From a virus (taxonomy: Duplodnaviria; Heunggongvirae; Uroviricota; Caudoviricetes), in the IMG/VR virus record IMGVR_UViG_2541047683_000004, positions 1 to 42,486 of that record: DNA of 42,486 bases. The stretch is one strand, 5' to 3'. Shown here one piece after another: positions 3,688-42,486 of the stretch (position 1 is the stretch's first letter; the number at the start of each line of letters is the position of its first letter). The notes beneath the pieces were generated by a model, which searched no databases, was not told the DNA's origin, and was given only the letters and a program-made list of their open reading frames with translations. The translations under genes were made by a program, and so were the position numbers.

Positions 3688-5817
3688 CTATTCCTCAATA
3701 CCTAACCTGCTTGAAACCTCCGGCATAACAGTAACCTGAAGGGTTTTTGATGAATCTGTGTTTTTAATTGCTATGCTGATATTGTCAGAAGTGCTGTTAT
3801 TGTTTGACACTGTTATAGAGTTTGCATCCACCCCGAGTTTCGAATAAGCATCAGCAAAACTAAGACCAACACTTCCACCAACAACTCTATATGAACCATC
3901 AATTCTGAATGACGATATATTGTTATTGCTAACATCTCTAATTAGAACCCATATAGAAACACCCCTGAAAACAAGGCTTGCCCCTGATGGTATTTGAAGT
4001 GATACAGTTCCTGTGGAACCGGGGGGGATACTGCCAGTATATTTAGTTCCGTGCAGATATTTCCCCGGTAGATCTAAATACGATGTGTCTGGATGTAATA
4101 AATTATGTATATGTCTGCTATCTATGCTTCCAGACAGAACCATAGAATCATTGCCATATTCAATTATCCTTCCACCATCGTTACTTATTGTAAGTAATCC
4201 TTTGTTTCCTTTATTATTTCTAACAGTTATATCAGAAGAATCCAGGCGGACAATTGATATATTTTTTTCTGATCCATGACAATAATTTGATGAAATTTCA
4301 CCTGTAACAAGTGACGTACATAAAATGTCTGAACTTCCATCACTGTCGCCAGTAATAGTGTTGCAGGAAATTAATGCACCATATACCAGGCCTGTTGGAG
4401 ATTCTCCAAATTGCTCTATAGTAATCCGTTTTGTGGTATTTGCTGATATGGTTATATTATGAACATCGTCAGTTTGCGATGTTACTTTGATCCTTGATGA
4501 AACTGTATTTCCAGAAATAGTAACATTACTTGTATCATCCACCCATAAATATGACGAAAACGTATTACATGATATGACTGAGTTACTCACCATTGAGTTC
4601 TCAAGCTCACATGAACCATAGCTATTGTTATGGTCATAATTTCCTATAATCCTTACAAATCCATTCTGGTTAATGAAGTTGTATGATGTTGCATTTTGTC
4701 CGCCATAAGTTGAGTTATGTGATGTTTCAGCATTTGTAACGCCTATATGTTGAAAATGACCGGCATTTACAGAATCAGGAGCAACTGATGTACACCCTAT
4801 TACTTTTGTGTTTTTGACAATTCTTGAATTAGGGTCATTCTCCAAATAATAGTTTTTTGCAACAAATGCCGTAGAGTAAAAGAAACCTTCAAATCTATTA
4901 AATAAAATCTGAATATCGTCATAATCTCTTTGGTCTTCATTTGCATAGCAATAAAATGCTCTTGAAGACTCGGAGTAATCCTTGCATTTCTGAACGCCAG
5001 ATAAAAGCGATCGGATTCTGCTAGATTTTATTCTAAATCCGTTGTGAATTAACGTTGCATCACCAACTAATGTTATTGGCTTAAACAATTCAACCTTATC
5101 AAAAACAAATTCACCACCATAAAATCCAAGTATAGCCCCTTCTGGTGCTGCATTAATAGCATTTTGAATTGCTACAGTATCATCTGTTATGCCGTCTCCT
5201 TTTGCACCAAAATCACGAACACTAATGGTGTCTCTCATCTTATCCTGGAACGTTCGGTACACAGCCCCAGAACCATACTGAATAAACCAACCAAAACCAC
5301 CAACAACCCCGGCGATTGCAGCATCGACATAATTACGCATTGAGCGATTATTTACAGCATCCTGCTCAAGTGATGGATCTGCAAGGTTAGAAATTCTGTT
5401 TTGCTTTGCATCGTAATATTTTGCAAGCAAAGATGGTTTCATCAATGCACGTCTGAACCACCCAAAACATTGCTGGATCAGCATCGTCAGGTAGTCAAAG
5501 GCATCTTCATGCACTTCGGGAAAAAACTTTCCCTGATTGCGAAGGTCTGTCTCCTGTACTACATCAAGCACACGATCTATCGTAATTCGCCATCCAGTAG
5601 CAAGCGGAGACGGAAGAACCACAGAACCGCCACTATAAGTGCCCGCCCCAGTTACCGTATAACCGGTATCCAGAACCAATTCTGTTACGTTCCCGTTCAG
5701 GTCAGACACCTGAACAACCAGGTCTGATTTTCTGAAAATTCGAAAAGTATACGGAAACGATGTCGTAACGCCGTTACCTGTGTATTCGTTGTGGTCAACT
5801 TCGGTTGAGACCGTCAT
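3688..5817 (-). CDS. Tailspike with right-handed beta-helix (pectate-lyase-like) polysaccharide depolymerase domain
   Basis: 709 aa; N-terminal particle-binding domain; motif VRDFGAKGDGITDDTVAIQNAI typical of pectate-lyase-3 superfamily; AT-rich, Ser/Asn/Thr-rich repeats. Confidence 0.8.
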   Translation of the reverse strand: MTVSTEVDHNEYTGNGVTTSFPYTFRIFRKSDLVVQVSDLNGNVTELVLDTGYTVTGAGTYSGGSVVLPSPLATGWRITIDRVLDVVQETDLRNQGKFFPEVHEDAFDYLTMLIQQCFGWFRRALMKPSLLAKYYDAKQNRISNLADPSLEQDAVNNRSMRNYVDAAIAGVVGGFGWFIQYGSGAVYRTFQDKMRDTISVRDFGAKGDGITDDTVAIQNAINAAPEGAILGFYGGEFVFDKVELFKPITLVGDATLIHNGFRIKSSRIRSLLSGVQKCKDYSESSRAFYCYANEDQRDYDDIQILFNRFEGFFYSTAFVAKNYYLENDPNSRIVKNTKVIGCTSVAPDSVNAGHFQHIGVTNAETSHNSTYGGQNATSYNFINQNGFVRIIGNYDHNNSYGSCELENSMVSNSVISCNTFSSYLWVDDTSNVTISGNTVSSRIKVTSQTDDVHNITISANTTKRITIEQFGESPTGLVYGALISCNTITGDSDGSSDILCTSLVTGEISSNYCHGSEKNISIVRLDSSDITVRNNKGNKGLLTISNDGGRIIEYGNDSMVLSGSIDSRHIHNLLHPDTSYLDLPGKYLHGTKYTGSIPPGSTGTVSLQIPSGASLVFRGVSIWVLIRDVSNNNISSFRIDGSYRVVGGSVGLSFADAYSKLGVDANSITVSNNNSTSDNISIAIKNTDSSKTLQVTVMPEVSSRLGIEE

Positions 5818-5920
5818 GTTAAATCTCCAGATAGTCGCAGCACCCGTTGCGCCGCATATCTGGTTATTCTATTACCTGAAAAACCATATATGGATAGAAA
5901 GGCTGTAAATACGAATAGAT

Positions 5921-5937
5921 ATTACCTTTCAGGTAAT
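5921..5937. promoter_or_regulatory. Operator-like palindrome ATTACC-N5-GGTAAT (copy 1)
   Basis: Perfect 17-bp palindrome attacctttcaggtaat in intergenic DNA between tailspike start and LexA-box gene. Confidence 0.6.
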
Positions 5938-5975
5938 TTGCAAAACGTGCTGGATAGCAAACAAATTATTTGCTA

Positions 5976-5991
5976 CTGTATAAATATACAG
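5976..5991 (+). promoter_or_regulatory. LexA (SOS) box CTGT-N8-ACAG
   Basis: tactgtataaatatacagtt matches LexA consensus taCTGTatatatataCAGta; 22 bp upstream of ATG 6014. Confidence 0.7.
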
Positions 5992-6013
5992 TTATTGCAT
6001 GGAGAAGATTAAG

Positions 6014-6271
6014 ATGCAGCAGTATCACTATCCACTGGAAGACGGATTTACCGAAAGGATTCACACGCCGGGAGGCGTCAGGTCACTGGTGGAGGGATCG
6101 CACTTGATGAAATTACTCCGGGATCTCGATAAGGATGGATTTAATGTCGATGGCCCACTTGCCGAACTGACTGCACTGATTAACTACGTCACCAGCTCAC
6201 AGATGTCTATGCGGGATCTGCAAACACATCTCGACTATTGTGCCGAACAATTACGAAAACAAACCCGGTAA
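6014..6271 (+). CDS. Small SOS-controlled antirepressor-like protein (stand-alone copy of the shared C-terminal module)
   Basis: 85 aa; GGAGAAG RBS; aligns to the C-terminal 70 aa of the two larger antirepressor-like proteins (LM.LL..L..DG..V.G..AELT ... RD.QTH..Y). Confidence 0.6.
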   Translation: MQQYHYPLEDGFTERIHTPGGVRSLVEGSHLMKLLRDLDKDGFNVDGPLAELTALINYVTSSQMSMRDLQTHLDYCAEQLRKQTR

Positions 6272-6293
6272 ATTTAAAGGCCGCAAGAGCGGC

Positions 6294-7022
6294 CTATCGT
6301 TTCGCTTTGTGCTCGTCCCAGCACGTTTTGCACCATGCCATTAAGCCGTCCGCATTTTGATTATTAGGGTAAAAGCTGGTCCGTTTTCTGCGGACATTAC
6401 AAATTGGGCACCACTTCATATGGCGTGTATTCTTTGGGCCATCGAGACACCTTGCACACCACTTAGTCAATCCATCTGGATTTTTTGACGATTTCCGGAA
6501 TTTGTCATATGGAAGGTTTATTCTGCATCGCAAACACTGCTTGCGGCCACTTGAAACTCTGTTAGCTGATTCTTCTTTTGACGGCGATACAGAAGGTATT
6601 CTTGCTGGCTCTGATACTGCCTGAGGTGCTTTTTTAGATGACTGAGACGATATGTCATCACCAGGGAATCTTCCATGATATGCCGGACGCGTTGACACTC
6701 CAGGTGGAAGCTCAGCTGTAAACGGCTTTGGCTGAATCAGTTGCCTCTCTTTTGCTAACTCCTGCTGTTTATAATATGTCTGGATTACCGCACTATCATA
6801 AGCAGGAGGTGCGGAAATATTAGGCGCATTACCTCCAGTTTTTTGAAACTGAGTAGAGGTGTGTTCTATCACCTGTGTACGATTAATCGTTATCTCCCCA
6901 TCTTCGGTCTTTATCGTTTTGTTATGATTAACGACCGTACGATCAGAGATCTTAGTCTTGTTCTGGTTGATAACGTAAATAATCACCGTAACCACACCAA
7001 CAACTATCCAGAAAACTTCCAT
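6294..7022 (-). CDS. Membrane-anchored protein with C-terminal double zinc-ribbon (2 x CxxC...WCxxC)
   Basis: N-terminal TM MEVFWIVVGVVTVIIYV, Pro/Ser-rich linker, two Cys4 units; GAGGAAAA RBS; 5-prime cassette identical to gene 10832. Confidence 0.6.
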   Translation of the reverse strand: MEVFWIVVGVVTVIIYVINQNKTKISDRTVVNHNKTIKTEDGEITINRTQVIEHTSTQFQKTGGNAPNISAPPAYDSAVIQTYYKQQELAKERQLIQPKPFTAELPPGVSTRPAYHGRFPGDDISSQSSKKAPQAVSEPARIPSVSPSKEESANRVSSGRKQCLRCRINLPYDKFRKSSKNPDGLTKWCARCLDGPKNTRHMKWCPICNVRRKRTSFYPNNQNADGLMAWCKTCWDEHKAKR

Positions 7023-7041
7023 TGCTTTTCCTCACAATAAC

Positions 7042-7058
7042 ATTACCTTAAAGGTAAT
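7042..7058. promoter_or_regulatory. Operator-like palindrome (copy 2)
   Basis: attaccttaaaggtaat, 14 nt upstream of RBS of gene 6294-7022. Confidence 0.6.
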
Positions 7059-7134
7059 ATCTTGCTTTCAGGTGATCAAGCATTAAACGCAACCAACCAA
7101 ATACGGTTGATTTTAATATTTCTTCGCGTTTATC

Positions 7135-7151
7135 ATTACCTTTGCGGTAAA
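7135..7151. promoter_or_regulatory. Operator-like palindrome (copy 3) abutting putative -35 TTTACA of leader promoter
   Basis: attacctttgcggtaaa; followed by TTTACA-N17-CATAGT. Confidence 0.55.
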
Positions 7152-7186
7152 TTTACATCGCACTCCTCTTGTGCCATAGTAATCGG

Positions 7187-7262
7187 GCACTGGCAAAATC
7201 CAGTGCCGGGATTGGCGTCCCGGATTACTAAAAGGCGCATTCACCGCGCAAGCGGTTTTTTT
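7187..7262 (+). ncRNA. Candidate small structured RNA (two hairpins plus intrinsic terminator) in antirepressor leader A; c4-like riboregulator candidate
   Basis: Hairpins gcactgg/ccagtgc and ccggg/cccgg, terminator accgc-gcaa-gcggt-T7; conserved with compensatory changes in inverted copy at 10096-10174. Confidence 0.4.
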
Positions 7263-7419
7263 ATGCGTATAGCACGGCCACATTCGTATTATGGTGGGCT
7301 GTGTGGGGGCACCGAAAGGTGCGCCGGGTCCTTTTAGCCGGTTACGCCAACCCTGCACAGTTCACCACCAACCGATTGGCGTCGGTAGTGGTGATTAACC
7401 AGACTAAAAGGTAACCACT

Positions 7420-8115
7420 ATGACAGCTACAAAAAGCACGTCCATTTTTTCTTTCGAATCCCAAGCCGATATACGGGTAATCGTCATTAATGGTGAGCCA
7501 TGGTTTATCGCTTCAGATGTTTGTCGGGCTATAGGCATAGCAAACCATCGAGATGCTGTTCGAAAACTTGATGATGATGAGAAGGGCGTCGCTTCAACCG
7601 ACACCCCTGGCGGTGAGCAAGAATCGATCATCATCTCCGAGTCAGGCCTCTACACACTGATCCTCCGCTGCCGCGACGCAGTGACACCAGGCACTATCCC
7701 CTACCGCTTTCGCAAATGGGTTACAGGTGAGGTTCTTCCTCAGATCCGCCGCACCGGAAGTTACATTAAAAACTCGCTCCCGCAGGAAGAACGCATAAAG
7801 ATGGTTGCCGACCAGGTAGCCAACGCCACGGCGTCAGCAGTAATGCAGGCGATGAAGATAGAGAACAAAACCTACAGCGCCCCGCTGAAGCCCGGCTACC
7901 GCAGTCTGATTCATTCGCCGTCTGGTGTTCTCGGCCTGACGGAGAACTCATTGCTGATGAATCTGCTGAATCAGTTGCAGGACGACGGGCATGATGTATC
8001 GGGCGCGGCGGCGGAACTGACCACCATGTTCTGCTACATCGTCGGTGTGAGCAAATGCCTGCGTGATATCCAGACCCACGCGGAGTACATCAACGACAAG
8101 GCAGGGTTCTTCTGA
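7420..8115 (+). CDS. Antirepressor-like protein, Bro-N type N-terminal domain plus shared C-terminal module
   Basis: N-terminal SIFSFESQADIRVIVINGEPWFIASDVCRAIGI resembles Bro-N; C-terminal 80 aa nearly identical to gene 9289-9939. Confidence 0.65.
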   Translation: MTATKSTSIFSFESQADIRVIVINGEPWFIASDVCRAIGIANHRDAVRKLDDDEKGVASTDTPGGEQESIIISESGLYTLILRCRDAVTPGTIPYRFRKWVTGEVLPQIRRTGSYIKNSLPQEERIKMVADQVANATASAVMQAMKIENKTYSAPLKPGYRSLIHSPSGVLGLTENSLLMNLLNQLQDDGHDVSGAAAELTTMFCYIVGVSKCLRDIQTHAEYINDKAGFF

Positions 8116-8159
8116 CGGGCGGTGGCACAGGGATGTGCCTTTAAATAATTCTGTACAGA

Positions 8160-8188
8160 TTGCAGACTGTGGGTGAATAGCGTACTAT
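8160..8188 (+). promoter_or_regulatory. Sigma70-like promoter TTGCAG-N17-TACTAT for cassette 8263-9216
   Basis: Hexamers with 17-bp spacer; operator palindrome overlaps -10 and start site. Confidence 0.5.
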
Positions 8189-8203
8189 TACCTCAAGGGT
8201 AAA
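8187..8203. promoter_or_regulatory. Operator-like palindrome (copy 4)
   Basis: attacctcaagggtaaa overlapping -10/+1 of cassette promoter. Confidence 0.55.
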
Positions 8204-8262
8204 CGGATTGGTTTCATTTTTATTAATCCGTGTAATGAACTTATGAGATATGAGGTAATGTC

Positions 8263-8442
8263 ATGCGAAACGAAAAATTGCAGATGCGTAGAGCGCAAGC
8301 TGCCGCAAGACGTTCTTTCAATGGAAGCGTAGAGTACGTAAAAGTTACTATGACAAAAGATCACGCAAGTCGCGTATCCCGCGCTTTCTTTGATTCTCGT
8401 AACAATAAGGAAAATTATGAGTTCGTCTGCGTCGCAGAATGA
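8263..8442 (+). CDS. Small basic protein (59 aa), candidate antitoxin or regulator
   Basis: GAGGT RBS 6 nt upstream of ATG; overlaps start of downstream gene by 26 nt; not in supplied ORF track because under 60 aa. Confidence 0.4.
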   Translation: MRNEKLQMRRAQAAARRSFNGSVEYVKVTMTKDHASRVSRAFFDSRNNKENYEFVCVAE

Positions 8443-8962
8443 TAAAAATCAAATTGTCAGATATAAGGGTCGAGTGTTGCATACGCAAAATTTCTCGGCC
8501 CTTTGTGCATCTGATCTTGAGCTGAAGAAAGTATCTGATGCCTTTACCCAGTATTGGAAAACGGGATACCATCCATCTCTTGGTAAAGATGCTGCATTTG
8601 CTCGTCCGACAGAAATGCTTAAACTAAATGTCAGGCATACTCATGTCGATAACCAAGACTATATTCCAGAAGATAGTGATAAAAAACACACTGGTAAAAA
8701 ATCATCTTGGGATGCATGGAAAAATATAGCGTCTGTACAAGTAAAATGCATACCAACAAGTGATTGCTTTTTAGTTTATTCGGTAAATCACAATCGTGAT
8801 GCGCTGGTTATGTTTTTTGTTGACGCAGATGCTCACAACATAACTGAGCAAGAAGAGTTTAAAGAGGAAGCAATCACTATCAGTTATCAATTCTTTGAGA
8901 AAACAAAAACAGAACCAATGCCTTTAGAAGAAGATCTTTTTTCTGATAAATGGAAGGAATAG
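8417..8962 (+). CDS. AT-rich accessory protein, possible YafO-like toxin (tentative)
   Basis: AAGGAAA RBS; motif pattern F..Y...G..P..GKD, RHTHV, FLVYS, DADAH resembles recalled YafO-family pattern; visibly AT-rich versus flanks. Confidence 0.4.
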   Translation: MSSSASQNDKNQIVRYKGRVLHTQNFSALCASDLELKKVSDAFTQYWKTGYHPSLGKDAAFARPTEMLKLNVRHTHVDNQDYIPEDSDKKHTGKKSSWDAWKNIASVQVKCIPTSDCFLVYSVNHNRDALVMFFVDADAHNITEQEEFKEEAITISYQFFEKTKTEPMPLEEDLFSDKWKE

Positions 8963-8982
8963 CCCGCAGCGCGGGCTTTTTT
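8963..8982 (+). terminator. Rho-independent terminator
   Basis: cccgc-agc-gcggg followed by T6. Confidence 0.6.
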
Positions 8983-9054
8983 GTGGACGAAACAAAAGTC
9001 AGTGCTACACTCATTGACGCCACATTGAGGTGGCTTATAGATGGAAATTTCACA

Positions 9055-9216
9055 ATGAAAAAAGCATTTGCTGCACTGTTCGTTTTATTGTCTCTGGTAG
9101 CTTCAACTCAGGCCTTTGCCGGTCGTTGTCAGCACGACAGCGATACTGCTGCTGACGGCTCCCGCTGCGGTGGGCGTTCTGCGGATTCCCGTCCGGGCGG
9201 CGGTGGCATTCGTTAA
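9055..9216 (+). CDS. Small secreted Gly/Arg-rich peptide (53 aa) with signal peptide
   Basis: MKKAFAALFVLLSLVASTQAFA signal then 31-aa Cys-containing tail; weak RBS. Confidence 0.35.
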   Translation: MKKAFAALFVLLSLVASTQAFAGRCQHDSDTAADGSRCGGRSADSRPGGGGIR

Positions 9217-9239
9217 AAACAAGGCCGCGAAAGCGGCCT
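9214..9239 (-). terminator. Intrinsic terminator for antirepressor gene B
   Basis: aggccgc-gaaa-gcggcct hairpin followed on minus strand by T-run. Confidence 0.55.
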
Positions 9240-9251
9240 GTGACATGTCAC
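9240..9251. repeat. Perfect 12-bp palindrome GTGACATGTCAC (copy 1 of 3)
   Basis: Exact palindrome between convergent genes. Confidence 0.6.
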
Positions 9252-9288
9252 GATAGTTTCGTTTTGCACATCCCTGTGCCGCCGCCCG

Positions 9289-9939
9289 TCAGAAGAACCC
9301 TGCCTTGTCGTTGATGTACTCCGCGTGGGTCTGGATATCACGCAGGCATTTACTCACACCGACGATGTAGCAGAACATGGTGGTCAGCTCCGCCGCCGCG
9401 CCCGATACATCGTGCCCGTCTTCCTGTAACTGGTTCAGCAGATTCATCAGCAGTGAGTTTTCCGTCAGGCCGAGAACACCAGACGGAGAATGAATCAGAC
9501 TGCGGTAGCCGGGCTTCAATGGGGCACTGTATTCTTTTTTGTCTTCCAGCTTGATCGCCTCCATAATGGCGGGCATGAAGCCTGACAAGACCTTCTCCAC
9601 TTTTGTTTCTTGTTGTCTTAAACGTTTCTCGCATTCAATGAAGTAGCGTCGTACCTGACGACCTTTTTCGTTACGCTCGACCATCGCCAGCTCTTTGGCT
9701 GTATCGAGGGTTAGGTGGTAGTCTTTTGCAGGACGGCCTCTGCCTATTTTTTCCCGAACTTGGGAAATAATCATAAAGTCTTGATTTTCAACGAAGCCAT
9801 ATTCAGCAATTCGTTCGACAATCCACGAAGCAAATCGCTTACCCACATCGAGGAAAGTGTGTAAATCACGGGCATTAACGAGAAGAGCGGTTTCGTTGGA
9901 TATAGTGCCGTTGAATACGGGGATGAGTTGAGCGTTCAT
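9289..9939 (-). CDS. Antirepressor-like protein, AntA/Rha-type N-terminal domain plus shared C-terminal module
   Basis: N-terminal LIPVFNGTISNETALLVNARDLHTFLDVGKRFASWIVERIAEYGFVENQDF resembles AntA-type domain; C-terminal 80 aa matches gene 7420-8115; GGAG RBS. Confidence 0.65.
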   Translation of the reverse strand: MNAQLIPVFNGTISNETALLVNARDLHTFLDVGKRFASWIVERIAEYGFVENQDFMIISQVREKIGRGRPAKDYHLTLDTAKELAMVERNEKGRQVRRYFIECEKRLRQQETKVEKVLSGFMPAIMEAIKLEDKKEYSAPLKPGYRSLIHSPSGVLGLTENSLLMNLLNQLQEDGHDVSGAAAELTTMFCYIVGVSKCLRDIQTHAEYINDKAGFF

Positions 9940-10095
9940 GATGGCGTCTCCACTTAGCGAATTACATCACCACCGCTGAGACCAATCAGATGGTGGTGAA
10001 CTGAACGGAGTTGGTCTTACCGGCCTAAGTGGTACCGGCGTCCTTTCGGACCCCCATTCAGCCCACCATAATTCTGGCATGACTGTGCTATACGC

Positions 10096-10174
10096 ATAAA
10101 AAAACCACGTCTGGCGTGGTATGCGCCACTTAGTAATCCGGGAGACCAATCCCGGCACTGGATTTTGCCAGTGC
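10096..10174 (-). ncRNA. Candidate small structured RNA in antirepressor leader B (inverted paralog of 7187-7262)
   Basis: Same hairpin-hairpin-terminator architecture; terminator stem differs in sequence but preserves pairing (ccacg-ccaga-cgtgg). Confidence 0.4.
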
Positions 10175-10209
10175 CTGATTACTATGGCACAAGAGGAATG
10201 CGATGTAAA

Positions 10210-10226
10210 TTTACCGCAAAGGTAAT
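10210..10226. promoter_or_regulatory. Operator-like palindrome (copy 5)
   Basis: tttaccgcaaaggtaat, inverted counterpart of copy 3. Confidence 0.55.
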
Positions 10227-10372
10227 GATAGACACAGACAAACATTAAAATCAACCATATTTGGTTAATGCGTGTAAAAGAGCCAGCAGCGAGAAATTGT
10301 GCCGCGACGTAAAATAACGAGCATCTGCTGGCTTACAACCAGCGATGTTTCAAATTTGTCACTACTATCAAC

Positions 10373-10771
10373 GTGCCATTCCACGGCGCAGAGCTTTATG
10401 TTGTCAATCACAACGGCGAACCGTATACCCCAATGAAACCTATCGTTGAGGGAATGGGGCTAGACTGGAAATCTCAACATAAGAAGATTTCTCAACGCTT
10501 CTCGAAGGGTATGGTGGAAATCACCATACCTTCTGCCGGTGGGGTGCAAGCCATGATTTGTATGGCTTTACGAAAATTGGCAGCTTGGTTGAACAGCATC
10601 AGCCCTAACAAAGTCCGCCCTGAAATCCGCGACAAGGTAATCCAGTATCAGGAAGAGTGTGACGATGTGCTCTACGAGTACTGGACTAAAGGCCATGTGG
10701 TTAACCCACGCAAAGCTAAAAAGGCGTTGCCGGGTAAAATCACTACTGAGCAACAGGAGGTATACACTTAA
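10373..10771 (+). CDS. Antirepressor N-terminal-domain-like protein, start codon unclear (possibly truncated remnant)
   Basis: Segment LYVVNHNGEPYTPMKPIVEGMGLDWKSQ resembles P22-antirepressor-type N-domain by recollection; only GTG or internal ATG starts, no good RBS. Confidence 0.35.
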   Translation: MPFHGAELYVVNHNGEPYTPMKPIVEGMGLDWKSQHKKISQRFSKGMVEITIPSAGGVQAMICMALRKLAAWLNSISPNKVRPEIRDKVIQYQEECDDVLYEYWTKGHVVNPRKAKKALPGKITTEQQEVYT

Positions 10772-10795
10772 CACTTGATCACATTAGCACAAAAC

Positions 10796-10812
10796 ATTAC
10801 CTTTAAGGTAAT
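10796..10812. promoter_or_regulatory. Operator-like palindrome (copy 6)
   Basis: attacctttaaggtaat 14 nt upstream of RBS of gene 10832; part of 49-bp block identical to that at 7020-7060. Confidence 0.6.
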
Positions 10813-10831
10813 GTTATTGTGAGGAAAAGCA

Positions 10832-11359
10832 ATGGAAGTTTTCTTAATCATCGTCGGCATCGTGATTATTAATTTTGTTTTTTTATTTATTGCAAAAAAA
10901 CAAAAAAGTAACGATATGCATGTTTCTACAACTGATGATCTTACCTTTGTAGAGCATGCACTGAATGTATCAGGATATAAACTCACCCCATACGGAGCTG
11001 GTGTATCACTCATGTCTTTAAGTAACGGTTTTTCAAAAGAAGAAACATTTTCACATATAGCTTTGATGGCTCTTTCTCAACACGCCAAAGTCGCAGGTAG
11101 TGACGCAATTGAGCTTAGTAAAGTTAGCATTCGTGCGATGTCGATAGCTGAAAACTTAACTAAATTATTCAGGAAAGGTCTTATTCGATCAGAAATATAT
11201 AAAAATGATTTGAATGCTATCATGGCTGTCAGCACAATTAATGAAAACCAAGAGGATTGGATTTCCATAGTTCTGGAAAGCAATAGCACATCTAACAAGG
11301 ATACTATTGCTTTGCCGATAAGTGCAGAAGCTTCTTTAGAAGCCATAAACAGCCATTGA
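10832..11359 (+). CDS. AT-rich membrane-anchored accessory protein (moron), function unknown
   Basis: N-terminal TM MEVFLIIVGIVIINFVFLFIA then soluble domain; visibly low GC; shares promoter-operator-RBS-TM cassette with gene 6294-7022. Confidence 0.55.
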   Translation: MEVFLIIVGIVIINFVFLFIAKKQKSNDMHVSTTDDLTFVEHALNVSGYKLTPYGAGVSLMSLSNGFSKEETFSHIALMALSQHAKVAGSDAIELSKVSIRAMSIAENLTKLFRKGLIRSEIYKNDLNAIMAVSTINENQEDWISIVLESNSTSNKDTIALPISAEASLEAINSH

Positions 11360-11380
11360 AAGAACTCCAATAAATATTGA

Positions 11381-14300
11381 TTAACGCATCACCGGATCCA
11401 CCTGGTTTATTAGTGGCGCAATCCAGAACAGGTTATTGCCGGGTATCAGGGTTCGGACATTATGCACAATACGATCACCGGCATCACCATTCAACACTCC
11501 TGCGGTCACATCAATGATGCTATCCGCAAGACCAAATGACGGTCCGAATAGAGATCCTACGAATCCACGACTGGCATACCTAGACTGTGTGCCAGTGCCA
11601 AATAAAGCCCCCAGCCCAACAGCACCACCAGTAGCCTTTTCAGCCATGTTGTTATATTCCATCAATGGCCCAAGAATACCGGATCTATCTATACCCTCAA
11701 GCACCAGCTTCTCTGGTGACCAGTCAACATTTTTCCCTTTCGATGCTTCTTTAAGCGCATAGACCAGTGAGCCAAGAGCAATCTGAAATGCAGTGCCATA
11801 ATAAAATTGCGCAGTTCCTTCCTGTAACCCACCAAGTAGCGCACGGTTGTATGAAGCCGTTGTGAATGATTTAAACTGAAATATCGTTCGCCCCATTGGA
11901 GTACTCGCCCATAAAGGTGTGTCACCAATACCGGGGGTGATGATAGTGTTATTAACGTCTTTCAGAACCGCTGACTGGAATACTCCGGCAACGTACTGAT
12001 CGTCCCATTTATCAAAGTTACCAATGTGCCATCCATCAATTACCTCACCATGTTTCTCGAACTCACTGCGAATACGCGCAGCCATATTGTCGTTGATACC
12101 GAGTTTTGCCATGCGACGTGCAGAAAACGCACCAGACAAAATACCGTCTGACGTGAGCATTCCGTTCATGGATTTGTTTATGTCATTAAATCGATCCATG
12201 AGTGTCAGCTTGCCGAAGGCATCAGTAATTCGCTCCATTCCTGCTTCGACTGCTGTTGTCCTGGAAGAACTGTCAACAAGATCACCAATTGCACGAGAAC
12301 GTGAATGTAGTACAGCTTCCAATCCAATCCCCATCTTCAACATCTCTTCTTTGCTGGCCTTAAATGCCGGTGATTGGGATATCTGAGAAGCATAGCCTTT
12401 CATGGTGTTACGGAAACCATTAACCATAACCCCTCTGGCCAGATCTGGAATAGCTGATACTGTCATTCCACCGAGTTTGGTCGTGAAGTTCACATCCCGC
12501 AGAAAAGCGCCAGCACGAACAAAAAACGAAGACGGATCATCAGGCATACCATATGTACCAACAAGACGATCGCGTAATGCTGTTATGTCTCTGAGATCAT
12601 TTGCTCTTGATTTTGAAAGTCTGGACTGTTCTTTCCGTAATTCCTTTTCGTACTTTCGCATTAATGAATCGAGTTTACCCTGAGGAACAACTTCACCATT
12701 GCTCTCATAACGTGCTTTCAGATTTGCCACACTTTCGTCATATTTCGCCTTTATTTTTTCAGGCACTTCCCGTAACAGACTGTCATATTCGTCCTCAATT
12801 AATTGCAGACGCTCAGTCATAGTTCGTTTGCCAAATGTTCTCGTCAACTCAATTTCTGCTGCCGCTTCACGGATATGACGTTGCAGCACGTAATTCACAT
12901 CACTTTCAAGATAATCCCTGATAAGACTATCAGGAACATTTAATGTTCTTTCTTTCGTACTACCTGCGGCTTTTACAGAAAATACGCTGACAAAATCCTG
13001 TGGAACCTTAGCACCAGTAATTTTATTAATTACGATATCCGCTGCAATTTCAGCATCCTCAGGATCCAGTGTTTTATTTCCTCTCGACCACCAGTCAACC
13101 AAAATACGTCGAAATTTATCGCGTTCACTGATTATTTTTCCAACTTTATATATGCGTGGGAAATAGCTTGCCTGGCCTAATGCTTTCAGTTCTTCATCTG
13201 GCGGCAATAAACCAAGCTTTTGCATTTCAACTTTCACCCGATTTAATACAGTTCGCATCGCCTGCGCCGTTTCCTGAACAACAGGATTAGCATGCACATC
13301 ACCGCTTCGCATAGCATTCCCAACCTGCTGACGAAATGAATCAAAACTCATGTCACCACCATCAGCTTTATACTTTGCGTATGCCTGTTTATTTCCGACA
13401 ACAACAGCAGCTTCTTCACGCTGCCATCCACGTGTACGGGTTTCTACAGCTACCGGTGTTTCAATCCCCCTTTCATTTCCTTTAAGGGTGAAATTATTTT
13501 CGGCTAACTCCAGCGTTGTTTTTCGCACCGTCTTGGACGGAGACTCCATTAACCTTGTCAAAGGAGTAAGAGAGATCCCTGCTTTCCATGCAGCCTTTCC
13601 AACCCACCCACCGGAAACAGGGGTTAAATCATCCAGAGTCGCTGTATCAATTTTCATAGCACCAACACTACCACCATCGGAAAGCGAAGCGGCAGCCCTG
13701 TCAGTCGCTGATGTAATGCTCATATTATCAAGAGCATCAGCAACCTCACGTGTGGCTGCAGCCCGGACGGATGGCGAAAGCGCAACACCAGCACTGGCAA
13801 ACACGCCGCTCATCATCGCACCCGCTGCAACGTGAGCGGCACTTTCACCCCATGAGCGTGTTATTTGCTGATTATTCAGTACAACCTCGCTTAATGCTGT
13901 ACCGGCAGCACCAATCGCAATCTGTGAGCCAATACGCGCCAGTGCCCCTCCTTGAGCACCGGGAATAAACATTGACGCAACAGTAACCGGATCCATTCCC
14001 GCAGCAATACTGGCAAGGGTTCCAACTACGCCAGCATCAGACAATAAACGTCTGTCTTCATTTTCATCATCTATCTGCTGCTTAATCCACGCCGTTTCCT
14101 CTGGCGATCGGGAATCTGCAAATTTCGCCCCCCAGTATTCATAACCGTGCAACTCATTTTTATCAGCATATGGGTTATAACCCTCGACCGGTTCAAACTG
14201 TCTGGCAGGACGGAAAAAACCAGCCAGAATATTGTTCTGTCGTATTGCTGCGGCAAGCAATGAAGGCTCTTTGGGCCGAGGTTCAGGGTTCTTACCTTCT

Positions 14301-14401
14301 GGCGGATGCACATCAAAACTCTGTTCATCAGGTTCAGGAATGGCGAAACCAGCAGAAATAAATCCGTTATTGTTTGATTCAGATACAGGATAGAACGGCA
14401 T
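11381..14401 (-). CDS. Large internal virion/ejection protein (1006 aa)
   Basis: Size and position after other internal proteins and before tailspike, as in T7-like gene order. Confidence 0.55.
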   Translation of the reverse strand: MPFYPVSESNNNGFISAGFAIPEPDEQSFDVHPPEGKNPEPRPKEPSLLAAAIRQNNILAGFFRPARQFEPVEGYNPYADKNELHGYEYWGAKFADSRSPEETAWIKQQIDDENEDRRLLSDAGVVGTLASIAAGMDPVTVASMFIPGAQGGALARIGSQIAIGAAGTALSEVVLNNQQITRSWGESAAHVAAGAMMSGVFASAGVALSPSVRAAATREVADALDNMSITSATDRAAASLSDGGSVGAMKIDTATLDDLTPVSGGWVGKAAWKAGISLTPLTRLMESPSKTVRKTTLELAENNFTLKGNERGIETPVAVETRTRGWQREEAAVVVGNKQAYAKYKADGGDMSFDSFRQQVGNAMRSGDVHANPVVQETAQAMRTVLNRVKVEMQKLGLLPPDEELKALGQASYFPRIYKVGKIISERDKFRRILVDWWSRGNKTLDPEDAEIAADIVINKITGAKVPQDFVSVFSVKAAGSTKERTLNVPDSLIRDYLESDVNYVLQRHIREAAAEIELTRTFGKRTMTERLQLIEDEYDSLLREVPEKIKAKYDESVANLKARYESNGEVVPQGKLDSLMRKYEKELRKEQSRLSKSRANDLRDITALRDRLVGTYGMPDDPSSFFVRAGAFLRDVNFTTKLGGMTVSAIPDLARGVMVNGFRNTMKGYASQISQSPAFKASKEEMLKMGIGLEAVLHSRSRAIGDLVDSSSRTTAVEAGMERITDAFGKLTLMDRFNDINKSMNGMLTSDGILSGAFSARRMAKLGINDNMAARIRSEFEKHGEVIDGWHIGNFDKWDDQYVAGVFQSAVLKDVNNTIITPGIGDTPLWASTPMGRTIFQFKSFTTASYNRALLGGLQEGTAQFYYGTAFQIALGSLVYALKEASKGKNVDWSPEKLVLEGIDRSGILGPLMEYNNMAEKATGGAVGLGALFGTGTQSRYASRGFVGSLFGPSFGLADSIIDVTAGVLNGDAGDRIVHNVRTLIPGNNLFWIAPLINQVDPVMR

Positions 14402-29483: not shown

Positions 29484-29557
29484 AACCACCGTGGTAATAG
29501 TTACCGTTGTGGTAATAGTACCATGCAAAATAAAGCCGCCATAGTTGGCGGCAGTAT

Positions 29558-33852: not shown

Positions 33853-33869
33853 TTTACCTCTAAGGTAAT
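33853..33869. promoter_or_regulatory. Operator-like palindrome (copy 8)
   Basis: tttacctctaaggtaat. Confidence 0.55.
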
Positions 33870-33914: not shown

Positions 33915-33931
33915 GTTACCTGATAGGTAAT
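33915..33931. promoter_or_regulatory. Operator-like palindrome (copy 9)
   Basis: gttacctgataggtaat; with copy 8 brackets a candidate internal promoter. Confidence 0.55.
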
Positions 33932-36154: not shown

Positions 36155-36201
36155 TCACCCATAAGGTAACAAAAATCAAGGATAGTTACCTATGGGGTGC
36201 A

Positions 36202-36218
36202 TTTACCTGTTGGGTAAT
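36202..36218. promoter_or_regulatory. Operator-like palindrome (copy 10) in immunity region
   Basis: tttacctgttgggtaat; nearby inverse arrangement GGTAAC...GTTACC at 36165-36190. Confidence 0.55.
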
Positions 36219-36272: not shown

Positions 36273-36857
36273 ATGAAAAGTATCCAGGACGTCCGCAGGC
36301 AAAATCTCAACGACTTGATCGACCGTGAATTCAATGGTGTTCAGACGCGGATGGCAGAAAAACTTGGAACTCAGGCAAATCTGGTAAACCGCTGGGCTCT
36401 TGGCAAGAAGGTTATCGGCGACCAGGTTGCGCGAAAAATTGAAGCTGCCGCCAATAAACCCCGTAACTGGCTTGATATCGATCGCTCGCTTTCTCAGGAA
36501 GGTTTTCAGCCTGTCGGCCCAAGCGACATTGGTCAGCTGGCAGCTCACAACCTGGAACGCTGGATGAGCGAAAGCCGCGACCTTTCAACACAGGGAAAAC
36601 TTCACCGCGCATCCGGCGTAGCCCAGGTGACAATCAGCCGCCTGTTAAACAATGAGGTCAGCGTTTCCATTTCCACCCTGGAGAATGTTGCATCCGCATT
36701 CGGGCGTCACGGCTATGAATTACTGATTCACCCGCACGACCCTGCGACCATCAACTATGATCGCTCGCGCTACGCATTGTTACCCGAAACCGAGAAAGCA
36801 AAGATCGAAAGTTACATTGAATTTGTCATCAACCAGAACGAAAAAAACAAACAATAA
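36273..36857 (+). CDS. Phage repressor candidate with two tandem XRE-type HTH domains
   Basis: Two helix-turn-helix-like segments (residues about 20-45 and 105-130); monocistronic between operator clusters; terminator downstream. Confidence 0.6.
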   Translation: MKSIQDVRRQNLNDLIDREFNGVQTRMAEKLGTQANLVNRWALGKKVIGDQVARKIEAAANKPRNWLDIDRSLSQEGFQPVGPSDIGQLAAHNLERWMSESRDLSTQGKLHRASGVAQVTISRLLNNEVSVSISTLENVASAFGRHGYELLIHPHDPATINYDRSRYALLPETEKAKIESYIEFVINQNEKNKQ

Positions 36858-36913: not shown

Positions 36914-36930
36914 ATTACCTAACGGGTAAT
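36914..36930. promoter_or_regulatory. Operator-like palindrome (copy 11)
   Basis: attacctaacgggtaat upstream of -35. Confidence 0.6.
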
Positions 36931-36948
36931 TTTTTTAACTCATATCTA

Positions 36949-36977
36949 TTGACATCAAACCATATACGCATAATTAT
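36949..36977 (+). promoter_or_regulatory. Early promoter TTGACA-N16-TAATTA
   Basis: Consensus -35 with near-consensus -10, flanked by two operator palindromes. Confidence 0.55.
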
Positions 36978-36992
36978 TACCTAAACGGTAAC
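36976..36992. promoter_or_regulatory. Operator-like palindrome (copy 12) overlapping -10/+1
   Basis: attacctaaacggtaac. Confidence 0.6.
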
Positions 36993-41229: not shown

Positions 41230-42486
41230 TTATTTATTACTGTCTTCCATCCACTTCTCAAACTTCGACGGGGAGAACGGAATCAGATCCGTATGCTCCC
41301 CGTTAATCCAGGAATCAATCATATCGGCCCACTGCTGCAACATGTAGGCGCGCTGTCTGGCGTATTCCGCTTTGTTATATACGGCGCGCACACCTTTCTG
41401 CTCATGTGCCAGAGCCTTTTCAATCCAGTCTGAAGGATAACCAGCCTCATGCAACAACGTACTGGCTGTACGGCGCATATCATGTACAGTGAAGTCCTGA
41501 ATATACTCACCATCTTCATTTATTATTTTCACCGTTCTGTCGATCAGAGAGTTCAGTGCGGCATTAGATAATGGCTTCCGGAAATTGTAACGACCAGGAA
41601 CCAGATATTCACTTCCACCAGCACACATCTGCAACCCGACCAATATATCCTGTGCCTGTTTAGGCAGGTAAATAACGTGTGCCCGGCTTCCCTTCATGCG
41701 GTCTGAAGGAATTGTCCATGTCCATTTTTTAAAATCTATTTCATCCCACGTTGCATTGGTGAATTCGCCTTTACGAACCATAGTGATAAGCACCAGCTTT
41801 AAAGCCATTTTCATAGTGCCCATAGCACCAATGGCATCCAACGTGCGGAAGAACAGGCCAATTTCTTCTGGTGTCAGTGTTCGCTCTCGTGGTTTAAATA
41901 TGGCGATAGACGAAGGCTTAATGTCAGCCGCAGGATTAAACAAACCATGACCACGGTCATTGGCGTGACGGTATACGCTGCTGATGATCTCCCTGGCCTG
42001 CACTGCTGTTGCCCGGCCACCGCGTTCGACAATCCGGTCACACAAATCACGAACCATCGATGTGGTAATTTCAGCCATCATTTTGTTGCCAAGAACCGGA
42101 AGTATGTCACGGTCGATCACTGCCTGCTTCATTGCGCGGGTACTTTCAGCCAGGATGACGTGTTTCATATAACTGTCGGTATGTACCGCAAACGTTTCGG
42201 CACCACGAATCTTTTTGATACCGTCACGTTTAGCCGCAGCCGGTGACTGGCCTGCTTTAAGCAGCTTCTTTGCAGCAATCAGTTCTTCCCGCGCTTCTGC
42301 CAGGCTGATACCGTCACGCCCATACTGCCCGATTACCAGTGTTTCGCGGCGACCGTTGATACGGTAGTCATAACGAAATGAGACCGTGCCTGACGTAAGC
42401 ACAGCTACATACAGCCCGTCACGATCGGAGACCTTGTACAGTTTGTCCTGCGGCTTGAGGTTTTTTAATTTTGTATCGGTAAGCAC
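41230..42486 (-). CDS. Tyrosine integrase, P4-like; N-terminus cut by window edge
   Basis: N-terminal LTDTKLKNLKP...YKVSDRDGLYVAV pattern; C-terminal HDMRRTASTLLHEAG...Y catalytic region. Confidence 0.85.
   Translation of the reverse strand: MLTDTKLKNLKPQDKLYKVSDRDGLYVAVLTSGTVSFRYDYRINGRRETLVIGQYGRDGISLAEAREELIAAKKLLKAGQSPAAAKRDGIKKIRGAETFAVHTDSYMKHVILAESTRAMKQAVIDRDILPVLGNKMMAEITTSMVRDLCDRIVERGGRATAVQAREIISSVYRHANDRGHGLFNPAADIKPSSIAIFKPRERTLTPEEIGLFFRTLDAIGAMGTMKMALKLVLITMVRKGEFTNATWDEIDFKKWTWTIPSDRMKGSRAHVIYLPKQAQDILVGLQMCAGGSEYLVPGRYNFRKPLSNAALNSLIDRTVKIINEDGEYIQDFTVHDMRRTASTLLHEAGYPSDWIEKALAHEQKGVRAVYNKAEYARQRAYMLQQWADMIDSWINGEHTDLIPFSPSKFEKWMEDSNK

Follow-up and report, generated by a model that had tools for sequence, protein, structure and literature searches.

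The 42,486-nucleotide (nt) window analysed here (IMG/VR record IMGVR_UViG_2541047683_000004, positions 1 to 42,486) is an epsilon15/phiV10-like (Uetakevirus) prophage on the minus strand, whose nearest records are the Escherichia phages TL-2011b and phiV10 and their relatives. Its locus at 5818-11380 is very probably a Uetakevirus-type secondary-immunity (antirepressor) region enlarged by duplication and module exchange; for the details of its control our confidence is lower. The locus is 5.56 kb long in the window and takes up precisely the interval from the start of the tailspike gene on its left (3688-5817, minus strand) to the stop of the gene for a 1006-amino-acid (aa) internal virion protein on its right (11381-14401, minus strand). 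The original prediction, made from this sequence, had described a block of about 5.5 kb with genes in mixed orientation between the internal-protein genes and the tailspike, and the coordinates and strands of the open reading frames (ORFs), which lie in both orientations, bear this out. It had also taken the block for an insertion into a T7-type gene order. This does not hold, as the phage is epsilon15/phiV10-like and the site holds an antirepressor gene in every relative examined. What has been expanded is thus a native regulatory locus, the antirepressor locus of a Uetakevirus-type prophage; it is not a foreign insertion.

Paired IsrK and C4 leaders

Two of the antirepressor (ant) genes are preceded by leaders in inverted order, and both leaders contain an IsrK small RNA (sRNA) with a C4 antisense RNA downstream of it. 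Every one of the four matches is full length and exceeds the Rfam gathering score. On the left, the IsrK-family sRNA lies at 7187-7262 on the plus strand (RF01394, 77.9 bits against a gathering score of 50) and the C4 RNA at 7287-7372 (RF01695, 77.7 bits against 45, model positions 1-87 of 87). A promoter-like site at 7152-7180 (TTTACA-17-CATAGT, with TG) ends 7 nt before this IsrK, whose terminator consists of a hairpin at 7243-7256 plus T7. The right leader is read from the minus strand, with a promoter-like site at 10209-10181 (TTTACA-17-CATAGT, again ending 7 nt before IsrK), the IsrK-family sRNA at 10098-10174 (RF01394, 67.7 bits against 50), its terminator hairpin at 10120-10104 plus T7 and the C4 RNA at 9989-10073 (RF01695, 61.2 bits against 45, model positions 1-87 of 87).

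Each leader carries its own set of recognition words. In the left cassette, IsrK contains the target words a1 TTGGCGT (7212-7218) and b1 CTAAAAGG (7228-7235), the C4 RNA carries the recognition sites b′ CCTTTTAG in a loop (7330-7337) and a′ ACGCCAA (7344-7350), and the ant mRNA carries the target sites a2 TTGGCGT (7376-7382) and b2 CTAAAAGG (7404-7411), all on the plus strand. Site b2 contains the Shine-Dalgarno sequence, 8 nt before the ATG at 7420. Written as RNA, b′ CCUUUUAG is complementary to CUAAAAGG, which holds the Shine-Dalgarno sequence of the Bro-N antirepressor gene, and a′ ACGCCAA is complementary to UUGGCGU, 20 nt upstream of b2. The right cassette is built in the same way on the minus strand, with a1 TTGGTCT (10143-10149) and b1 CTAAGTGG (10126-10133) in IsrK, b′ CCACTTAG (10025-10032) and a′ AGACCAA (10011-10017) in C4, and a2 TTGGTCT (9979-9985) and b2 CTAAGTGG (9950-9957) at the ant start, where b2 again lies at the Shine-Dalgarno sequence; the RNA words are CCACUUAG/CUAAGUGG and AGACCAA/UUGGUCU. 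The target words within IsrK (a1, b1) are identical to a2 and b2 in both cassettes, and each C4 pairs with its cognate target over 7 (a) and 8 (b) contiguous Watson-Crick positions. The summed duplex energies of the cognate pairs are -18.9 (left) and -21.6 kcal/mol (right), compared with -12.5 kcal/mol for the left C4 on the right-hand mRNA and -13.6 kcal/mol for the right C4 on the left-hand mRNA, so that cognate pairing is favoured by 5.3-9.1 kcal/mol over cross pairing. Compensatory changes between the copies occur at all three sites (IsrK, C4 and ant start), and therefore the cassettes are orthogonal; each C4 would be expected to control only its own ant.

The same three-way correspondence was found across the lineage. 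Eighty related IMG/VR loci were gathered using the tailspike N-terminus as the query, and TL-2011b and phiV10 were added (82 in total). These, together with the two leaders of the window, gave 83 leaders (69 distinct), collected by nhmmer search with loose anchors for site extraction. A MAFFT alignment of the leaders places the b-sites and some a2 sites out of register, and therefore complementarity was scored per sequence. The 83 leaders contain 3 a-types and 4 b-types in 7 combinations, and the IsrK, C4 and translation-start sites co-vary. Contiguous a plus b pairing amounts to 14-16 nt for cognate pairs against a mean of 9.7 for non-cognate pairs, although one non-cognate pair also reaches 16. 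In most of the 83 leaders a1/b1 match a2/b2 and are complementary to a′/b′; the CAAAGG class has CAGAGG as its b1, which still pairs through one G-U. A single leader of the 83 is a mismatched recombinant, its IsrK being mismatched at a1. It is the middle (leader 6463-6767, plus strand) of three IsrK-C4-ant cassettes found at 5500-9550 of IMGVR_UViG_3300045988_096329 (L010), where a1 of IsrK is of CG type and both a′ of C4 and the target a2 are of TC type, so that the decoy of this apparent recombinant mismatches its own C4 at one site. IsrK and C4 pairs are also present in phiV10, TL-2011b, Escherichia coli MS8345 and L010. C4 RNAs are characteristically cut out of the leader transcript by RNase P and repress ant translation. 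Expression of the two RNAs, their processing and the action of C4 in trans are predictions from sequence.

A GTGGTG motif just downstream of each C4 (7373-7396; 9964-9988 on the minus strand) can pair with CACCAC of the C4 closing stem. Such pairing would place a2 in a hairpin loop, a rival fold to that of mature C4, and may be relevant to processing or to a kissing-loop contact.

Antirepressors, the repressor Rep and a proposed circuit

The products of the two genes behind the leaders are fusion proteins. The left gene (7420-8115, plus strand) encodes a 231-aa antirepressor with a Bro-N domain (Pfam, 2.3e-21) and matches to PHROG anti-repressor families. Its C-terminal domain (residues ~148-231, 7861-8115) is SPC32H-Ant-like, with residues 150-226 matching chain E of PDB 5D50 (E 1.9e-13). 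The right gene (9289-9939, minus strand) encodes a 216-aa antirepressor with an AntA domain (Pfam, 8.2e-28) and a C-terminal Ant-like domain, matching phrog_377 (anti-repressor) and phrog_450. The C-terminal modules of the two share 95% protein identity. Pfam searches of these two C4-controlled proteins found only Bro-N and AntA, and P1-type Ant1/Ant2 was not seen there, no direct comparison having been made.

A third antirepressor gene is predicted to be under a different kind of control. The small antirepressor Ant85 (85 aa; 6014-6271, plus strand, with an ORF also open from 5999) matches PDB 5D50 chain E, the ‘Anti-repressor protein’ of SPC32H, at ~87% identity (E 1.4e-46), as well as phrog_450, and annotated homologues are 258 nt long. 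The sequence TACTGTATAAATATACAGTT at 5974-5993 (plus strand), 20 nt before its ATG, is the only place in the 42 kb where the 20-nt LexA consensus is met with ≤3 mismatches (0 expected), and CTGT-N8-ACAG is kept upstream of the homologous ant gene in 76 related loci. We regard TACTGTATAAATATACAGTT as a putative LexA-binding site at the ant promoter.

The presumed target of these antirepressors, the prophage repressor Rep, is encoded outside the locus (36273-36857, plus strand) and matches PDB 5D50 chain A, the ‘Repressor’ of SPC32H, over its full length (E 4e-42). A Pfam scan of Rep gave helix-turn-helix families only (four matches, including weak ones to LacI and YdaS_toxin) and found no Peptidase_S24 (autocleavage) domain. 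As Rep lacks an autocleavage domain, induction must pass through an antirepressor; the same logic has been reported for SPC32H (Kim and Ryu 2013, as cited in PMC7380047). The Ant of SPC32H breaks the Rep tetramer (PMC9638917), and the Ant-type domains of the locus would, by homology, bind the Rep of the window.

With 0.77 occurrences expected, the window contains 16 copies of the palindrome TTACC-N5-GGTAA. They cluster around rep, with palindromes at 36155-36217 and 36915-36991 flanking the gene, and six lie in the locus, one ahead of each transcription unit. These are found upstream of the small ant gene (5922-5936, TTACCTTTCAGGTAA), in the left start cassette (7043-7057), at the left leader promoter (7136-7150), ahead of the cargo genes (8188-8202), at the right leader promoter (10211-10225) and in the right start cassette (10797-10811). 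The 69 distinct leaders all keep the same half-sites and differ in the 5-nt spacer. SPC32H contains 18 such sites against 0.59 expected, three of them in the rep-cro intergenic region and one upstream of ant, ~37 nt from the upstream LexA box. TTACC-N5-GGTAA is thus likely to be the Rep operator. Palindromes span 2950-36991 of the window and lie ahead of early-looking operons and not of rep alone; examples are 26416-26430, 29501-29515, 33854-33868, 33916-33930, 36203-36217, 36915-36929 and 36977-36991. The same dispersed pattern is seen in SPC32H, and it resembles the scattered C1 operators of P1, which are dispersed over that genome.

Taken together, these elements suggest the following circuit. 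The three proteins sharing an SPC32H-Ant-type domain would bind and disassemble the non-cleavable Rep. Since Ant85 lies behind a LexA box, DNA damage would be expected to induce it: LexA would be removed, Ant85 made and Rep taken off its operators. Bro-N-Ant and AntA-Ant would be silenced twice, by Rep at their promoters and by C4 over their ribosome-binding sites. Transcription of a leader would yield terminated IsrK first and, on read-through, C4 followed by the ant mRNA; a′ and b′ of C4 would then pair with a2 and with b2 over the ant Shine-Dalgarno sequence and block translation, as in P1/P7 immI. IsrK, with its decoy words a1 and b1, could titrate C4 and relieve this repression, as in Gifsy-1. 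Orthogonality of the two C4/target sets would make each cassette a gate of its own. It is probably these gates that settle whether immunity can be broken by a relative, incoming or resident, as the analogy with P1/P7 and P22 immI suggests. The mirror-image order would be a by-product of duplication that provides homology for module exchange and for occasional RecA-type inversion.

Several points weigh against this circuit. An icd-like coupled ORF between C4 and ant was not found, there being only 47 nt between them, and the ORF that starts after the IsrK terminator ends inside C4, at 7337. As there is no icd/orf45-like coupled ORF, unlike in P1 and Gifsy-1, control may work differently in detail. 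A promoter-like site lies on either side of the leader operator, and if Rep fully shuts the IsrK promoter in a lysogen, no C4 would be available in trans. The fused Ant-like domains are ~44% identical to Ant85, and the Rep of the window shares only about half its residues with that of SPC32H. NCBIfam and PADLOC gave no match for any protein of the locus, including the cargo and the two membrane proteins. In ten multi-cassette loci the C4 types are all different within each locus, and we considered this lack of repeats as a sign of selection for orthogonality; it was set aside as too weak, there being only 7 types.

We also raise, tentatively and as rather less than probable, the idea that superinfection immunity in epsilon15/phiV10-like prophages has a second, combinatorial layer coded in RNA. 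It would be made up of the IsrK-C4-target triads, with no fewer than 3 a-words and 4 b-words, seen in 7 combinations. If so, a resident prophage would silence the antirepressor of an incoming relative only with a matching C4, and the resulting arms race would select new a/b codes and the stacking of cassettes with different codes (two in the window, three in L010). All cassettes would converge on one Rep through the shared Ant domain, beside the LexA-gated Ant, and the mirror-image layout would be a stable way to hold two near-identical cassettes in one genome.

Inverted repeats, mosaicism and alternative explanations

The original prediction had noted three nested pairs of inverted repeats around an AT-rich core, and all are found in the sequence. 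The outer pair (I3, 6997-7086 / 10768-10857) comprises the start cassettes, which had been given as 49 bp; the repeat exists, with its similarity extending further, over 90 nt at 83%. The left start cassette holds the first 9 codons and the 5′ untranslated region of a 242-aa gene together with its palindrome, and the right one holds a palindrome, the 5′ untranslated region and the first codons of a 175-aa gene. The leaders form the next pair (I2, I4 and I5 jointly, 7095-7395 / 9966-10266), ~300 nt in three pieces of 76-86% identity. The inner pair (I1, 7860-8138 / 9266-9544) is 279 nt long at 94% and encodes the last ~85 residues of the Bro-N and AntA antirepressors. Between its arms lies the core (8139-9265), with a GC content of 0.37-0.41 against ~0.55 in the flanking arms. 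Inverted repeats of such length and identity are far beyond chance. The nesting is asymmetric, in that start cassette and leader on the right-hand side have a 0.5-kb P22_AR_N gene fragment (10373-10771) between them, and a third, diverged copy of the C-terminal module (~44% aa identity) is the free-standing gene at 6014-6271. The repeats had been described without a function. They are functional elements in mirror-image copies, namely promoter/operator, IsrK-C4 leader and Ant domain, the leaders corresponding to regulatory RNAs and the genes to antirepressors.

The remaining genes of the locus lie around and within these repeats. A terminator-like hairpin (6278-6295, minus strand) separates the convergent small ant and 242-aa genes. 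The latter (6294-7022, minus strand; phrog_6762, no function assigned) encodes a protein that has a membrane helix at its N-terminus and is rich in Cys in its C-terminal region, with weak endonuclease VII and Lar-like zinc-motif matches, and is present or absent depending on the relative. The AT-rich core holds a cargo pair on the plus strand (8263-8962), in which a 59-aa ORF (8263-8442) overlaps a YafO-like gene (8390-8962; Pfam YafO_toxin 9.1e-06, barely above the cutoff); the pair matches phrog_6685 and phrog_1651, both of which have no assigned function. It is followed by a gene for a 53-aa protein with a signal-peptide-like N-terminus (9055-9216, plus strand; phrog_14503, ‘membrane associated protein’). 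The P22-type ant fragment at 10373-10771 (plus strand) contains the N-terminal domain only (Pfam P22_AR_N 9.4e-45) and shares 97.5% DNA identity with the 5′ part of the ant of phage CUS-3; its homologue is marked partial by PGAP in two E. coli genomes. As its orientation is opposite to that of the full-length gene of TL-2011b, it is probably a recombination remnant. The 175-aa protein (10832-11359, plus strand; phrog_21690, no function assigned) has an N-terminal membrane helix. No sar RNA (Rfam) and no Arc/Mnt-like ORF was found in the window.

Comparison with relatives reveals extensive mosaicism. Among the window and the 82 related loci, 62 contain one leader, 9 (including the window) contain two, 1 contains three and 11 contain none, and where both flanks were found the locus ranges from 3.3 to 5.6 kb, the window being the largest. 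At this site SPC32H has ant alone (~0.65 kb), with no IsrK or C4, and phiV10 has ant and one IsrK-C4-Bro-N cassette (~1.7 kb). TL-2011b likewise has ant and one cassette, to which are added the YafO cargo found in the window and a P22-type arc-ant-sar module. This module (TL-2011b, 5145-6329) encodes an Arc-like repressor and a sar RNA (Rfam, 44.8 bits) along with a P22_AR_N Ant that ends in an SPC32H-Ant-like module (92% identity), a third kind of N-terminal domain joined to it. E. coli MS8345 and CE0007a share the mirror-image architecture of the window, with other ant alleles and other two-gene cargos. The module combination of the window was absent from all 80 IMG/VR loci, TL-2011b and phiV10, and coverage of the locus stays below 80% in every complete E. 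coli genome. Homology between relatives breaks off where the small ant ends, at the ends of the leaders and of the C-terminal module, and at the terminator that follows the cargo; the C-terminal module is kept at 92-100% protein identity behind interchangeable Bro-N, AntA and P22_AR_N domains. Module exchange at conserved cassettes, as originally proposed, thus agrees with what relatives contain: gene content at the site varies widely among the genomes compared, and the breakpoints lie at conserved elements.

The slot between the first ant and the gene for the small secreted protein carries a different module of a small and a larger ORF in each genome: 59 aa and YafO-like in the window (8139-9265), 62 and 110 aa in MS8345 (L083, 3625-4147) and 69 and 288 aa in CE0007a (L084, 3575-4650). 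The slot looks like a toxin-antitoxin or defence hotspot; PADLOC finds nothing for the pair of the window.

Nested inverted repeats around a unique core could mark a programmed DNA-inversion switch of the Gin/Hin/Cin or shufflon type, flipping the segments between them, and two natural genomes do differ by a 3.3-kb inversion bounded by leaders. A 3,260-bp segment with both ant genes and the cargo (L004 6266-9524, L050 6268-9526) is inverted between these loci at 98.4% identity, with collinear flanks and junctions within the ~270-bp leader repeats. A switch is nevertheless extremely unlikely. A search for a Hin-like invertase in the window was negative (best Hin tblastn match E 8.3; none at E≤1), the sole recombinase among the ORFs scanned is a tyrosine integrase (41230-42486) 30 kb from the locus, and no invertase was found within the locus, where all ORFs fall to other families or to PHROGs with no function. 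Moreover, the repeats are functional gene and RNA segments of 90-300 nt and not short crossover sites, and as the promoter and operator of each unit lie within the invertible part, inversion would not switch expression. The original prediction had likewise seen no invertase gene and no support for programmed inversion, and these searches agree with it; nevertheless, a natural inversion between leader repeats did occur, presumably by homologous recombination.

The mixed orientation, the AT-rich core, the YafO-like toxin gene, the membrane proteins and the genome-specific cargo between the two ant genes might also point to a foreign accessory (moron or defence) island, or to a composite mobile element with the inverted repeats as its ends. 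We consider this very unlikely, as ORF, Pfam and PHROG scans found no transposase or integrase in or beside the locus, ant occupies the site in every relative, even in the minimal SPC32H, and the repeats are internal regulatory and coding elements and not termini; only the 1.1-kb core acts as exchangeable cargo. A somewhat better case, still an improbable one, can be made for fusion antirepressors that act elsewhere, on the repressors of other prophages or on host or anti-defence targets, with the C-terminal module serving mainly as a recombination linker. Their N-terminal domains are interchangeable before a near-invariant C-terminal module, the function of Bro-N is unsettled in the literature (PMC9782041) and related AntA-domain sequences occur in Stx phages. 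However, the module is clearly homologous to the Ant of SPC32H, which binds Rep, its 92-100% protein identity argues for selection on the protein, and overexpression of the Bro-N antirepressor of the related Uetakevirus ZX5 promotes the lytic cycle (PMC9782041). An expanded native antirepressor locus acting on Rep is therefore the reading that we retain.

Elsewhere in the window, the left end beyond the lysis genes (1-1071) holds a TraT/glycine-zipper-like lipoprotein ORF (1-516) and a DUF5384 protein (532-1071), which are possibly lysogenic-conversion genes. A tRNA gene at 26753-26826 (Rfam, 71.7 bits) has the anticodon loop CUUCUAA and is probably tRNA-Arg(UCU); SPC32H carries a tRNA-Arg at the equivalent place.

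Significance and relation to known systems

Every component of the locus comes from a described family and has close relatives in public databases, and current understanding is not overturned. What is new is descriptive: three kinds of N-terminal domain joined to the Ant domain, a pair of heterospecific IsrK/C4 cassettes in inverted order beside a LexA-gated ant, and a seven-member a/b code in the lineage together with a natural inversion isomer. An anonymous symmetric accessory locus is thereby replaced by a specific, testable regulatory circuit, which joins the LexA-Ant-Rep switch of SPC32H, the c4 immunity of P1/P7 and the IsrK of Gifsy-1 at one site of one phage lineage. The natural a/b variants are ready orthogonal pairs of antisense RNA and target, two to four nucleotides apart, and could be used in tests of heteroimmunity evolution or as parts for synthetic regulation. 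Moreover, ‘hypothetical’ leaders and phrog_450 in E. coli prophages can now be labelled as IsrK, C4, Ant domain and Rep operator.

The position of the locus between ejection-protein genes and tailspike is that of P22 immI (mnt, arc, ant and sar RNA). The window keeps a P22-type ant fragment, and in its relative TL-2011b a full Arc-like repressor accompanies P22-type Ant and sar RNA at the site, whereas the window lacks mnt, arc and sar and is predicted to be controlled by IsrK/C4 and LexA. The same three-part cassette, c4 and isrK upstream of a Bro-N gene, has been described in the APSE phages of Hamiltonella, also temperate podoviruses, whose authors saw the a′/b′ complementarity upstream of the Bro-N gene (bioRxiv 10.1101/2020.03.17.996009). 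APSE genomes differ in having one c4 and one isrK each, and a fused SPC32H-Ant domain and an inverted duplicate are unmentioned in that paper.

In the isrK-orf45-anrP region of Gifsy-1, IsrK likewise has its own terminator, and read-through gives the ~80-nt STnc1160 and then the antirepressor mRNA; IsrK pairs with this downstream processed RNA and activates antirepressor translation, Hfq binding and action in trans being among its experimental properties, and the authors liken IsrK to SeqA of P4 (PMC4825925). STnc1160 is here taken to be the equivalent of C4. In contrast to the window, where the only ORF over C4 stops inside it, anrP is coupled to a 45-codon ORF overlapping the RNA, and the output is the AntQ antiterminator where inactivation of an SPC32H-type Rep is expected for the window.

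In P1, C1 and C4 jointly repress ant (PMC8198154), and immI of P1/P7 has the order c4 antisense RNA, icd, ant1/2 (Citron and Schuster 1990, as cited in PMC8198154). The window resembles it in a C4-family RNA predicted to be made from the ant leader, with two regions complementary to sites up- and downstream of which the downstream one lies over the ribosome-binding site, in what is probably a main-repressor operator at the promoter and in the natural specificity variants (P1 against P7; seven a/b combinations in the lineage of the window). It differs in having no icd-like ORF, with b2 directly on the ant Shine-Dalgarno sequence, in Ants apparently unrelated to P1 Ant, in its two cassettes and in being a podovirus prophage as opposed to a plasmid myovirus.

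Another close parallel is with Rep/Ant of SPC32H (Kim and Ryu 2013; structure PDB 5D50), a phage of the same genus, in which ant occupies the same site between the internal-protein genes and the tailspike, Ant is 87% identical, Rep is homologous over its full length and both a LexA box and TTACC-N5-GGTAA lie upstream of ant. SPC32H has a single small ant, to which the window adds two Bro-N/AntA-fused Ant genes under predicted RNA control. The locus is thus an enlarged, essentially ordinary version of those of SPC32H, P1, Gifsy-1 and P22.

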